The notes: generated by a model not told the origin, from the letters alone. A DNA stretch of 23,994 nucleotides from Clostridia bacterium (GCA_045599485.1 JAZRWA010000071.1:1-23994); one strand, 5' to 3'; shown: positions 1,086 to 20,381, numbered from the stretch's first letter. Made by a program: numbers and translations.

Positions 1086-1625
1086 TTAGTTTTCACCGGC
1101 CATGCGGCGGCGAAGGTCGGACAGACGGCGTTGGATGGTGTTATCCCACCGCTGACCATTCATTTCGACCATCACGCCGCCCATCAGCTTTTCGTCAATT
1201 TTTTCTGACAGTTTGACAGCCTTGCCCATGTTCATCGCGACAAGCTTCTGAAGCAGTTCACTGCGTTGAGAAGAGGTCAGAGGTTCAGCGGTGAATACGG
1301 TCGCTTCTACTATACCGTTAGCTTTATTGAAAGCATCACGGTAAGCTTCTTCACAGCCGGAAAATTCACTGATAGCGCCTCTTTCGCACAAAAGCTTGAG
1401 GAAATTCAGCAGGTAAGGCTGGATTTTGCCGCGCAGAGTGGTGTCAAGAATGCTGCAGCGTTCGTCCTTGTTGATGGACATGTTGCCAAGCAAGCGACAA
1501 TAATCGGGATTCTACTCGAACAGTGCGAGCAAATCGTGTAATTCCGATAGCACTTCAGCGCTGATTTTTTCTTCAGAACAAAGATCAAACAACGCTGTGC
1601 CATATTCCTTTGCCAATTCTGTCAC
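1086..1625 (-). CDS. atpH: F1Fo ATP synthase subunit delta (OSCP), 179 codons including one in-frame TAG at 1512..1514
   Basis: The track shows only 1086..1493 (135 aa). The same frame read upstream gives GTG(1625..1623)-TELAKEYGTALFDLCSEEKISAEVLSELHDLLALFE-TAG-NPDYCRLLGNMSINKDERCS.... This restores the normal delta-subunit length. The GTG overlaps the atpF stop (GTGA). Terminal stop is TAA. Confidence 0.85.
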
Positions 1626-2131
1626 TGTGCGTCACCAACATTCTTGATGAAGTCATTTACAAAGGCCTCGTGATCTTCTTTTTTGATCTCACGACCCATG
1701 ACTTCTGAGGCGATCTCTACGGCAATGCCGGCAATTTCACTGCGTACATCCTGCAGCATCTGCGCTTTTTCGGTGAGGACTTCCTCCTGCGCCTTCTGCT
1801 TGATGCGAGCGGCGGTCATAGAAGCTTCCTGTAGCATGATCTCACTCTTGTGCTGGGCAGTTTGCGTCGCATTGTGTACGATGCTGTCTGCCTCTTCACG
1901 AGCATGAGCCAGATTGGCTTCAAAAGTCTGCTTCATTCCGACGGCTTCTTCCCGATTCTTTTGAGCCTCGTCATAAATCTTGTCAACTTCATTGCGGCGT
2001 TGCGCAAGAATGTTTTTGACCGGCTTGAACAGGAAACGCTTGAGAATGAAGAACATGACCACAAGGTTAAGCAGAGCAATGATGATCTGCCAGATATTTA
2101 CCGATATAACTTCCAGAGCCTGTAGTTGCAT
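1622..2131 (-). CDS. atpF: F1Fo ATP synthase subunit b
   Basis: 169 aa with an N-terminal TM helix (IWQIIIALLNLVVMFFIL) followed by a long charged coiled-coil. RBS GGAAGGTGA lies upstream. Position between atpE and atpH fits. Stop is TGA. Confidence 0.88.
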   Translation of the reverse strand: MQLQALEVISVNIWQIIIALLNLVVMFFILKRFLFKPVKNILAQRRNEVDKIYDEAQKNREEAVGMKQTFEANLAHAREEADSIVHNATQTAQHKSEIMLQEASMTAARIKQKAQEEVLTEKAQMLQDVRSEIAGIAVEIASEVMGREIKKEDHEAFVNDFIKNVGDAQ

Positions 2132-2172
2132 ATTTTCACCTTCCGTGTACCGGCGTCAGCTATGATTTATAA

Positions 2173-16997: not shown

Positions 16998-19431
16998 TCT
17001 TGGCAGAATCCTCGTTGATTTCTATACTTGCGTCTATTTCGAGCGCCTGCTCTATGCTGATCGGTTCCTGAACCACGGGAGGCTCCACCAAAGGCAATGA
17101 AGCACTTGTATCGAACTCTTCCGGGTTGACAATGATAGGAGCGGTGTCATCCGTCGCAATGGATTGGACCATGTCGTATTCGACGTCGCCGCCTTCCACG
17201 GTCTCGCCGTCCCATTCCTCTTCTTGCTCATCGTCCTATTTCTCGGGAGAAGGTGCCGGCTTGACAATGGGCGCAACAACTACCGGAGGATCGGGATACT
17301 CGATACGCTCATGGAATACACCATTCAGCACTGTTGTGCAGGCATGGCAGATTGCATCGATGTCGTGAAGGGTCAAGGGGGAATTGGAGAGCTGACCATC
17401 CTGCAGTTTGCCGCGGACAAGCTTGACAATAAACTATTCGATCGTTTCCGGCGTAGGATTCTGCATGGAGCGCACGGCAGCTTCAATGGTGTCACAGAGC
17501 AACACGATGGCTCCTTCCTTGGTAGAGGGAGGATTGGCGTGATAGCGGTAATCCTCGACGTCAACCGAGCCGTCGTTTGCCTGCTTTAGGGCGAGCGTAT
17601 AGAAATACATAACAGGGGTGTTGCCGTGATGTTCAAGGATAATGCGGACAATCTCACGCGGAAGATGATACTTATGCGCAAGAGTCGCGCCGTCACGCGT
17701 ATGCGACATGACAAGCTGCGCCGCTTCAACGGGCTCCATTTCCGCAAGCTTGTTGTAGGCGCTGAGCTGGTTTTCTTTGAAGCAATCCGGACGGCGAAGT
17801 TTGCCGACGTCGTGATAATAGCCGCCAACTCTTGCAAGCAGAGGGTTAGCGCCAACGGCTTCCGCAGAGGCTTCGGCCAGATTCGCTACCACGAGGGAGT
17901 GATGATAAGTACCCGGAGCCTCCAGAAGGAGCCGCTTCAGAAGCGGATGATTGGGATTGCTCAGATCCATCAGCTTGGAAGTTGTCGGGAGGTTGAAGAT
18001 CACCTCGAGAAGGGGCTGCAGTGCAATGCAGAGGAGGGAGGAAACCAGTGCCCCTCCGGCACACCACAACGCATCAAAAACACGTGCTTCCGGCGTACTG
18101 CTGGTCATGAGACCAAAGAGGTACATAATGGTAAAATTGGAGGCTGCCGCCGCAAGACCGGCAAATAGGATCCGCAGTCTTCCGGAACGGCCAGAGCAAA
18201 TGGCGGCGGCGAATGAACCGGAAACGAGCGTGCAGGTAATCAGCTGGACCATCTCGACGGTATAGGCGTCGCTGCTTCCGGCCGCCAGGGAACTGATCAG
18301 CACAGCCGACATGATGTTGGCCATAATGGCGGCGGGAAGACCGAGTGTGCCTGCTAAAAGCATGGCACTGAGCATCATGGGGACCAGATAACTGTTGGCT
18401 GTCCGAAGAAGGATGCTGCCTCCCAGAGAGATTGAGATAACGATATAATGCAGGAGCAGCTTGCGTTTATCCCGGGTGACTGCCGGAACAAACAGATACA
18501 GCATCAGGTACTCCATGATGACCAGTATGATGACAAGCAGAGCAGCGCCAACATAGATGTTGAAGTCGGTCGTGTTTCCGTTATTGAGCACACCGAGGCT
18601 TTGAAGCATGGCATACTGATTCTTTTCGACAAGGCCTTCGCCTTTGACGATGATGTTCTGGCCTTGTTTATAAATGACAGGCTCAACACTTTCGCGTACT
18701 GCCTAACGAGCCGCGGCGGTGGCTTCCTGATCGATGACCATGTTGGCTTCGATTACTGTGCGAAGTACAGGCTGTACCACATTCTGCAACAGGCTGGTAT
18801 CCACCCTGTACCCGACGATCTGCACGATGCTGGCGACAGCTTCGCTTTCCATCCCTTCGGTGACGGTACTGTTCATAGTATTCTGTACAGCGCTGTACAG
18901 GGTATGATAGAGGGAGGTAAGATCGTCATAACTGGTATTGAGCACGGTACGAAGCTGATAATCATGAAGGGTGATCTCAGTAACGATCGTGCGCGCGTAC
19001 GCAAGCTCCTCGGCGGTATAGCGTCTTGTAGGACCATTGTCTTCCAAAGTTGAGCTATACTGTACAGCGGCTTCCAACTGTGTGAAGATGTTCTGCAGCT
19101 TGGAAAGTACGTTTTCGGTAATACCTTCAACAAAATGATAGGTCGGCTTCACTGCGGCAGCCGCGTTTTCACGCAGTTTCTCCGTGGTAATTTCATCCAC
19201 CACATCGCGATTGGCCGCGATAGTAACCGTCGGAACCATTCCCACGGTAATGTCGTATTTAGCCGGAATGATCGCAGCGCAGAAGATGGCAATCAGGATC
19301 AGTGTGCTGATGAACACGATCAAAGCACGAAGCGACAGAAGTGCTTTGAAGAAGTGCTTGACTTTTTGCGTTCGTTTCTGTTGTCTGCTGCTTTTGATGT
19401 GCTTTTTTTTCGTTTTATCGGGATGTTTCAA
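16990..19431 (-). CDS. pgpH: PgpH/YqfF-type 7TM receptor with an intracellular HD domain (HDIG; cyclic-di-AMP phosphodiesterase family), 813 codons including three in-frame TAGs (18703..18705, 17434..17436, 17236..17238)
   Basis: Track ORFs 18703..19431 (extracellular domain), 17434..18609 (7TM plus HD: [20 protein letters not shown]) and 16990..17199 are all in one frame. The junctions read [65 protein letters not shown]...HERIEYP, and [19 protein letters not shown]. The TTG start overlaps the phoH TGA. Stop is TAA. Confidence 0.85.
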
Positions 19432-20381
19432 TGCTTTTGGGTCCTTTCGAAATTCTCGTATGCTTTGACGATGCGCTGTACCAGCTCGTGTCTTACTACA
19501 TCTTCAGAGCGCAGCATGGCAATAGCGACACCCGAAACATTTTTTAATACCTGCAATGCTTCCCCGAGACCACTGCGTTTGTCCCGCGGCAGGTCGGTTT
19601 GTGAGATGTCACCGGCAACAACGCATTTTGCCCCTGCGCCGAGACGTGTCAGGAACATTTTCATCTGTTCACAGGTGGTGTTTTGTGCTTCGTCAAGAAT
19701 AATGAAAGCGTTGTTCAGCGTTCGGCCGCGCATAAATGCAAGAGGAGCAACTTCGATGGCGCCACGTTCCTGCAGACGCTGGTATGCATCCGTCCCCAGC
19801 ATGTCATAAAGAGCATCATAGAGCGGTCTGAGGTATGGGTCAATCTTCTGCGTCATATCACCGGGCAGAAAACCAAGCTTTTCTCCGGCTTCCACAGCCG
19901 GCCGTGTAAGGATAATGCGCTCGACTTCTTTTGATTTCAGTGCCCGTACAGCAAGCGCCATGGCCAGGTAGGTTTTGCCGGTTCCCGCCGGTCCCGCCGC
20001 GATGGTCAGTTCGTGATTGCGGATTGCTTCCACATACTGCCGCTGTCCGTTGGTTTTGCAGCGAATCGGCTTGCCGCGATGGTTGTAGGCAACGATATCG
20101 GCGGAAATAAGCTCATCGGTTACTTCGGTTCCCTCTTTGATCATAGAAGCAAGGTAACGGACGCGAATGGGGTCAATACTTTCTCCGCTGCGCAGCATCT
20201 TCAGCAGCTGCATGATGACGTTCTCAGCTCGCGAAACGTTTTCGCTTGCTCCGGTAATACGCAGCTACTGACCGCGCAGCACAGCAGTGACTTCAAGCTC
20301 TTCTTCAAGCGTAGAAATATTGCAGTCGTTCATGCCAAACAGCAAACGATAGTACTCTGTGTTTTCCAATGATAACAGCAA
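19428..20381 (-). CDS. phoH: PhoH-family ATPase, 317 codons including an in-frame TAG at 20265..20267
   Basis: The track ORF (261 aa) lacks the N-terminal domain. The same frame upstream gives TTG(20381..20379)-LLSLENTEYYRLLFGMNDCNISTLEEELEVTAVLRGQ-TAG-LRITGASENVSRAENVIMQLLKML... after the RBS AGGGAGA. Walker A is GPAGTGKT. Stop is TGA. Confidence 0.85.

Follow-up and report, generated by a model that had tools for sequence, protein, structure and literature searches.

The stretch of DNA analysed here, a contig of 23,994 nucleotides from a Clostridia bacterium (GCA_045599485.1 JAZRWA010000071.1:1-23994; referred to below as the window, meaning the whole stretch at its full length), raises the question of whether the triplet TAG, ordinarily a stop codon, serves as a sense codon in a bacterial chromosome and, if so, which amino acid it specifies. 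Such a reassignment had been proposed in an initial annotation from in-frame TAG codons in genes lying between positions 1,086 and 20,381. Our comparative analysis indicates that TAG is almost certainly a sense codon in the lineage to which the window belongs and that, once this is granted, it encodes glutamate with high probability. At the level of sequence, the comparisons demonstrate that TAG is translated, inherited across the lineage and placed at glutamate or acidic positions. It is quite likely that UAG is a rare but ordinary sense codon, probably for glutamate, in the window's bacterium and its sisters, read by a transfer RNA, tRNA(CUA), derived from tRNA-Glu, with release factor 1 (RF1) lost or altered.

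Open reading frames (ORFs) were re-derived over the whole window with TAA and TGA as the only stops and with TAG allowed. The scan revealed 14 in-frame TAG codons in 10 genes, all of which have full-length frames once TAG is read through:

1512-1514, minus strand: codon 38 of atpH (ATP synthase delta subunit; gene 1086-1625)
2563-2565, minus strand: codon 280 of atpB (ATP synthase a subunit; gene 2506-3402)
3680-3682, minus strand: codon 82 of atpI (gene 3455-3925)
4532-4534, minus strand: codon 21 of upp (gene 3965-4594)
6696-6698, plus strand: codon 206 of the SpoIID-like gene (gene 6081-7799)
6795-6797, plus strand: codon 239 of the SpoIID-like gene
7233-7235, plus strand: codon 385 of the SpoIID-like gene
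9789-9791, minus strand: codon 263 of an S-adenosylmethionine-dependent methyltransferase gene (PF10672; gene 9720-10580)
14558-14560, minus strand: codon 216 of a polytopic membrane protein gene (gene 13997-15205)
16335-16337, minus strand: codon 221 of a ybeY-cdd fusion (gene 16092-16997)
17236-17238, minus strand: codon 709 of pgpH, in its acidic C-terminal tail (gene 16990-19362)
17434-17436, minus strand: codon 643 of pgpH
18703-18705, minus strand: codon 220 of pgpH
20265-20267, minus strand: codon 35 of phoH (gene 19428-20369)

All 14 positions agree exactly with those of the initial annotation, and the scan returned its other counts as well: none of the 10 genes contains an in-frame TAA or TGA or needs a frameshift, and the 21 gene 3' ends in the window consist of 12 TAA and 9 TGA, with TAG at none of them (a small ORF at 20527-20763 is counted in). 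That reading through TAG stays within the expected protein family, as had been claimed, is borne out by single Pfam domain matches spanning TAG in atpH, upp, the SpoIID-like gene, ybeY-cdd and pgpH. In other bacteria, PgpH (7TMR-HD in Pfam) and the SpoIID-like protein (SpoIID/SH3 protein in Pfam) have full-length homologues, which extend over 98-100% of the read-through products. The quoted odds for random nonsense mutation were reproduced too, since the chance of 14 out of 14 lesions being one stop type is (1/3)^14, about 2e-7, if the type is random. TAG accounts for 14 of the 7548 codons of the window and for about 2.7% of its glutamate-family codons; among the standard codons, GAA (365) is preferred over GAG (146), yet CAG (186) over CAA (60). 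The ATP synthase operon, ileS, gltX, glnS, era, ybeY and tgt all lie on the contig, which thus represents a bacterial chromosome and not a phage genome.

The window is a whole NCBI contig, and its genes are on record as fragments in the protein collection, as would be expected of gene calling with translation table 11, in which TAG is a stop. For instance, the ENA protein fragment P0131 restarts just past pgpH TAG 18703 and terminates at pgpH TAG 17434. Sister contigs were reached through the 90%-identity clusters of such fragments. Six other samples yielded contigs that carry the same split genes, run colinear with the window and match it at 86-92% DNA identity:

L161, L162, L163 and L169: sister contigs, sample SRR27361835
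L164: sister contig, sample SRR21150938
L165, L168 and L170: sister contigs, ERZ27247129
L166: sister contig, sample SRR17543910
L167: sister contig, ERZ27247133
L171: sister contig, sample SRR17543909

These contigs represent separate species or strains and not copies of one assembly. A codon-by-codon comparison revealed that TAG is kept between the window and its sisters at no fewer than 14 sites (that is, at least 14), and that it is exchanged mainly for GAG or GAA elsewhere:

TAG kept, sites in the window: cdd 16335, methyltransferase 9789, pgpH 17434 and 18703, atpI 3680, SpoIID-like 7233, atpB 2563 (in L165)
TAG kept, sites outside the window: atpD, two atpG sites, four tilS sites
TAG against GAG or GAA, 8 sites: upp 4532, SpoIID-like 6795, SpoIID-like codon 417, membrane-protein codon 261, pgpH codons 61 and 784, phoH 20265, a tilS site (glutamate read from protein fragment P0279, not from the codon)
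TAG against CAG or CAA, 3 sites: atpH 1512, atpB 2563 (in L162 and L164), SpoIID-like 6696
TAG against AAG: 2 sites
TAG against TAC, ACA and GGG: 1 site each

Selection on the genes was compared on the two sides of the first TAG. Between the window and the SRR27361835 genome, the ratio of nonsynonymous to synonymous substitution rates (dN/dS) was 0.069 in the 1573 codons that precede the first TAG and likewise 0.069 in the 1921 codons that follow it, at a synonymous divergence (dS) of about 0.7-0.8. The equality of the two values indicates that the sequence past TAG is translated and constrained. Further sister genes were found to bear TAG, namely atpD, atpG, tilS, recN, a PHP-domain gene, mnmA, znuA, tmk, an rRNA methylase gene and ylxM, and across about 40 gene families of the lineage the genes end only in TAA or TGA, with no TAG. 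The occurrence of TAG in these many further genes, together with the TAA/TGA-only ends, fits a general reassignment. The sister contigs extend the region by tilS-hpt-ftsH-PHP-argR-recN-tRNA-Met x2-FRG-HAD-...-mnmA-znuA-...-ffh in one direction and by atpA-atpG-atpD in the opposite one.

These data bear directly on the explanation that the TAGs result from faulty sequencing or assembly, from contamination, or from nonsense mutation in a genome undergoing decay. The contig does come from a metagenome-assembled genome and its genes are split by gene callers, as this explanation would have it. However, seven independent datasets agree, all 14 lesions would be of one stop type, selection past TAG is undiminished at a dN/dS of 0.069, and the genes are ordered as in a typical bacterial chromosome. 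The base before TAG is C in 0 of the 14 cases, against 30% before GAG or GAA (GAR) codons. The tetranucleotide CTAG is depleted throughout the window (2 observed against 11.7 expected), and the lack of a preceding C, which matches this avoidance, argues against random errors or artificial edits. A methylation-type motif around the TAGs was considered as a source of systematic error and none was found, the absence of a preceding C being the sole regularity. Errors, pseudogenes and contamination were rejected on the independent assemblies, the dN/dS values and the CTAG avoidance, and we regard them as extremely improbable.

Site-specific recoding was also rejected, as no common structure or context lies downstream of TAG. 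Folds of 83 nucleotides from each TAG (z from +0.41 to -3.86) yielded no shared downstream hairpin of the SECIS or PYLIS kind, and the bases flanking TAG vary. The analysis of folds and flanks thus repeats two observations of the initial annotation, the variable base after TAG and the missing hairpin. Its preference for reassignment over mutation or site-specific recoding is also upheld, given that relatives share the trait, purifying selection is equal on both sides of TAG, no common structure exists and none of the roughly 40 families has a TAG end.

The source organism appears to be an uncultured Christensenellales-like member of the Clostridia with rumen and gut relatives. Its IleRS is 77% identical to that of a metagenome-assembled genome from roe-deer rumen and its methyltransferase 84% identical to those of three metagenome contigs, while the best matches of PgpH and the SpoIID-like protein reach only 59-62% identity. 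At the window's TAG sites the nearest outgroups, with proteins about 60-84% identical, carry GAG or GAA rather than TAG, and they use TAG as a stop in 15.6% of long ORFs and in 5.9% of the orthologues of window genes. Hence, any recoding is specific to the lineage of the window. The trait is common to the lineage at the 86-92% level of DNA identity and was not seen in 160 outgroup loci save for one TAG, in the methyltransferase orthologue of L023 (4740-5591), an outgroup metagenome-assembled genome. A second recoded lineage was rejected as its source: aligned to leucine amid locally degraded sequence, this TAG gives the impression of an error or a pseudogene.

Concerning the amino acid, glutamate or an acidic residue ranks top in 11 of 15 deep TAG columns. 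TAG 16335 of ybeY-cdd corresponds to the catalytic glutamate of the cytidine deaminase C-A-E motif (aligned to NCAERTA in solved structures), where glutamate is found in three of three outgroup loci and TAG is kept in L161. The relatives compared at TAG 9789 of the methyltransferase all have glutamate there (101 of 101), and L162 retains TAG. Among 120 PgpH homologues, the column at TAG 17434 has E in 78 and D in 29, and that at TAG 18703 has E in 68 and Q in 39, with TAG kept in L161 at both; a further TAG column of PgpH shows E 89 and Q 21. The upp TAG 4532 is replaced by GAG in L162 and L170, and its column is D or E in solved structures and E in E. coli and the sister species, with D 80, N 21 and E 1 among 150 representative homologues. 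The phoH TAG 20265 is GAG in L161, and glutamate stands there in fragment P0136 and in the closest outgroup, L082. The atpD TAG occurs in three genomes, one of them that of the window (fragment P0285 ends there), and aligns with the Asp of HEMK-D-SGV in Bacillus F1-beta, and the mnmA TAG aligns with FMKNW-[D/E].

Other sites tolerate a range of residues. The columns of atpH, atpG, the SpoIID-like gene and several of TilS are too variable to indicate the amino acid of TAG. At atpH TAG 1512, four sister contigs have CAA or CAG, and the column is variable in solved delta/OSCP subunits. In the SpoIID-like gene, TAG 6696 is CAG in L162 and L170 (homologue column R/Q/K/S), TAG 6795 is GAG in the same two contigs (R/E/S), and TAG 7233 is kept in both (Q/S/T). 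The membrane-protein TAG 14558 is at a variable site (ACA in L161; G, H or S in outgroups), and L161 carries a TAG of its own at codon 261, which is GAA in the window. The pgpH TAG 17236 is AAG in L161, within a region unalignable across homologues, and the atpI TAG 3680, kept in L162 and L165, is located in a low-complexity loop separating two hydrophobic halves.

A different situation was encountered in atpB, where TAG 2563 is followed by an 18-codon Lys/Arg-rich tail (2506-2562, minus strand) conserved in the lineage. The partner codon is CAG in L162 and L164 and TAG in L165; because contigs with CAG and with TAG alike retain the same tail, it is taken to be translated. Solved a-subunits have their C-terminus 3-6 residues beyond the position of this TAG. 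The tail may therefore be a read-through extension that arose from a former TAG stop turned sense.

Two rough likelihood tests were applied to the question of Glu or Gln. A rough column likelihood over the 15 columns favoured Glu over Asp by 10^5 and over Gln by 10^8. A second, independent likelihood, built on the residues found in place of TAG in the sister genomes and on substitutions tabulated empirically from the same alignments, favoured Glu over Gln by 10^6.3. Decoding as glutamine through a supE-like tRNA-Gln(CUA) charged by the window's GlnRS, as in TAG-recoded phages and many ciliates, would account for the CAG/CAA partners at atpH 1512, atpB 2563 and SpoIID-like 6696 and for Q as the second commonest residue in two PgpH columns. 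The window does contain a genuine glnS, and wild-type GlnRS accepts CUA anticodons, as the supE suppressor of E. coli illustrates. On the other hand, this decoding would force glutamine upon the catalytic glutamate of cytidine deaminase and upon the column with 101 of 101 glutamates, where TAG is kept in two species. With CAG to TAG as a synonymous transition, CAG/CAA (CAR) partners should moreover be the dominant ones, yet they number 3 against 8 GAR partners; both likelihood tests disfavour glutamine by at least 10^6. Glutamine is thus an unlikely assignment. The phage code 15 (TAG = Gln) was rejected for the window on the same likelihood margin of at least 10^6 and on its bacterial chromosome content.

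The codon might also not be cleanly reassigned at all, with RF1 lost and UAG read slowly by near-cognate tRNAs as a mixture of Gln, Lys, Tyr and Glu, or with RF1 kept alongside a strong amber suppressor. CAG, AAG and TAC form the near-cognate set in RF1-deficient E. coli, and all three are among the non-GAR partners of TAG. The rarity of TAG (14 of 7548 codons) points the same way, as does its absence from the longest genes, which are probably also those with the highest expression (ileS, gltX, glnS, tgt, atpA). Set against this, TAG has been kept over a dS of about 0.75 at catalytic and invariant glutamates, where mixed insertion or 50% truncation would be costly. It is also present in the beta, gamma, delta and a subunits of ATP synthase and in MnmA, and there are no TAG terminators in about 40 families. 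We therefore consider imperfect decoding improbable, to about the same degree as glutamine.

Pyrrolysine (Pyl) or another non-canonical residue inserted genome-wide is very unlikely. Some Firmicutes carry pyl genes. A genome-wide use of TAG for pyrrolysine exists in archaea (10.1101/2024.09.30.615893). Nevertheless, the TAGs of the lineage stand on conserved Glu/Asp columns of housekeeping enzymes, including a catalytic carboxylate, and their partner is mainly GAG. No PYLIS-like shared downstream structure was detected, and no pyl genes were present in the small part of the genome covered by the lineage sequence.

With UAG as a glutamate codon, a coherent sequence of events can be outlined. 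UAG would no longer be a terminator, and UAA and UGA, both readable by RF2, would remain as stops. The amber-reading tRNA(CUA) would have arisen from tRNA-Glu by one change at position 36, turning the anticodon CUC into CUA, and would be charged by GluRS. RF1 (prfA), or its recognition of UAG, would have been lost. New TAG codons could then have entered genes either from GAG, as a synonymous change, or from CAG, AAG or TAC, as replacements at tolerant sites, and old TAG stops would have mutated to TAA or TGA or turned into read-through extensions. Exchange of CAG and TAG is to be expected even if TAG means glutamate, because CAG to TAG is a single transition and tolerant glutamine sites would feed the TAG pool. 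We infer the existence of this tRNA, the enzyme that charges it and the disappearance of RF1, and a CUA suppressor derived from tRNA-Glu together with RF1 loss seems moderately probable as the mechanism.

The candidate charging enzymes are both encoded at the far end of the window:

20815-22275, minus strand: gltX, bacterial GluRS (TIGR00464, 509 bits against a cut-off of 290)
22285-23985, minus strand: glnS, GlnRS (TIGR00440, 675 bits against a cut-off of 426)

The two genes are adjacent, with a gap of 9 nucleotides. The presence of both points to a direct pathway to Gln-tRNA and makes either enzyme a candidate for charging an amber-reading tRNA. A motif scan for release factors (GGQ) in the 160 outgroup loci gave a single match, RF2 in L024. 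The window contains no tRNA genes, and the only ones in all of the lineage sequence are two tRNA-Met genes, a tandem pair (CAT) at 6442-6598 on the plus strand of L168, between recN and the FRG-domain gene. U34 of tRNA-Glu, tRNA-Lys and tRNA-Gln is modified by the thiolase MnmA, whose gene carries an in-frame TAG in a sister genome (L169, 3797-4861).

Several observations weigh against a glutamate code read by such a tRNA. Neither a tRNA(CUA) nor a release factor gene turned up in about 95 kb of lineage sequence (the window plus about 70 kb of sister contigs), which corresponds to about 1-3% of a genome. In the alignment of the window's GluRS with that of T. thermophilus, Arg is retained opposite Arg358, the residue that reads C36 of tRNA-Glu, and this retention means that no adaptation of GluRS to a tRNA with A36 is visible. 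TAG faces CAG or CAA at three sites, and several columns are variable or non-acidic (R/Q in the SpoIID-like protein, R/L in TilS), so that glutamate is a statistical assignment and not a certain one at each site. Finally, the absence of TAG terminators, to which the initial annotation had given weight, stands as a count but carries less force than supposed. Against the background in relatives, the chance of finding 0 TAG among 21 ends is about 0.03 (at 15.6%) to 0.28 (at 5.9%), so that at a background of about 6% the lack of TAG terminators in the window is weak evidence by itself. Across the lineage families the chance of zero TAG ends ranges from about 0.001 to about 0.08 with the background rate assumed.

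The bacterial stop reassignments described so far all concern UGA (PMC8629427), and three bacterial codes are known from the literature searched. No report of a natural bacterial reassignment of UAG was found in that literature, which covered few papers from subscription journals; an earlier description may exist. The novelty that had been claimed for housekeeping-wide TAG decoding in bacteria is consistent with this search. There is a good likelihood that the window represents a fourth natural bacterial code, the first with UAG instead of UGA as a genome-wide sense codon, here for glutamate, restricted to a genus-level lineage of Christensenellales-like Clostridia from gut or rumen, with a presumed tRNA(CUA) derived from tRNA-Glu and RF1 loss.

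Among known systems, the closest by function is that of the ciliate Oligohymenophorea sp. PL0344, in which UAG encodes Glu and UAA Lys and the tRNA(CUA) is most similar to tRNA-Glu (PMC10553269, PMC12153298). UAG likewise means Glu on conserved Glu/Asp columns there, and its tRNA-Glu-like tRNA(CUA) is the very mechanism proposed for the window. The ciliate system differs in belonging to a eukaryotic nucleus, where a single eRF1 must change its specificity, and in reading UAA as Lys, whereas UAA is still a stop in the window. Bacteria possess two class-I release factors, so RF1 loss alone could free UAG in the window's lineage. Both UAA and UAG (UAR) encode Glu in peritrich ciliates and in Blastocrithidia nonstop.

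The nearest systems by domain of life, the bacterial translation tables 4 (UGA = Trp; Mycoplasmatales and others) and 25 (UGA = Gly; Absconditabacteria, Gracilibacteria), resemble the window's case in being lineage-wide stop-to-sense changes in bacteria, with stops in housekeeping genes and genes split by table 11 calls. They involve UGA, the loss of RF2 and a tRNA(UCA), in contrast to UAG, the expected loss of RF1 and glutamate in the window lineage. The archaeal code in which all TAGs mean Pyl, the nearest of the prokaryotic TAG systems, shares with the window lineage a genome-wide loss of the TAG stop in a prokaryote, which barely lowers coding density and is hence hard to detect; it depends on the Pyl machinery and a 22nd amino acid, whereas the window's TAGs occupy positions where a carboxylate is conserved. 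TAG-recoded phages (code 15; crAss-like, Lak) also show sense TAG in gut-associated sequence, often with a suppressor tRNA, but theirs are phage genomes with TAG as Gln, often in late genes only, as opposed to a chromosome with Glu-like columns. Engineered RF1-free E. coli strains (RFzero, C321.deltaA and related) are viable with sense UAG when given a suppressor tRNA (PMC3001078, PMC4434889, PMC11903333). In these synthetic strains essential TAG stops were deliberately recoded, and the window lineage would be their natural counterpart.

If the reassignment is real, the RF1 branch of termination would be losable in free-living, non-endosymbiont bacteria with a GC content of about 50% as well, and ideas on why UGA is the usual target could be tested. 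The lineage would then constitute a natural experiment in the clearing of essential TAG stops, with the AtpB tail as a possible relic, and its tRNA(CUA) and synthetase would offer a natural orthogonal-like solution useful to genetic code expansion. In gut communities, the code might furthermore block or filter infection by phages and the horizontal transfer of genes. The storage of the lineage's proteins as fragments is an annotation problem in its own right, rendering genome-quality estimates and gene catalogues wrong.

Some further features of the locus were recorded. The ybeY and cdd parts form a single fused gene of 301 amino acids, and dgkA is not present between ybeY and era; the fusion also occurs in outgroup L082 (one alignment, residues 1-301) and thus appears conserved in the group. 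The membrane protein at 13997-15205 (402 amino acids), labelled GT-C in the initial annotation, has no Pfam or NCBIfam match, and its orthologues are found in outgroups L082-L084 at 53-57% identity. A protein of 215 amino acids (5431-6081, plus strand) likewise lacks a Pfam or NCBIfam match and was matched only in sister contigs, with 0 matches among the 160 outgroup loci. The small ORF of 78 amino acids at 20527-20763 (minus strand), between phoH and gltX, was called in L161 too, and its HPr-family match is weak (24.6 bits, far under the cut-off). Exact copies of the sister-lineage atpF and hpt occur in GCA_024500545.1 as gene-length records (510 and 558 bp). Upstream of ileS lies a T-box leader, which scored 89.8 bits in the window (13755-13945, minus strand), just under the Rfam gathering threshold of 93, and 93.1 bits in L161 (12930-13119, plus strand).

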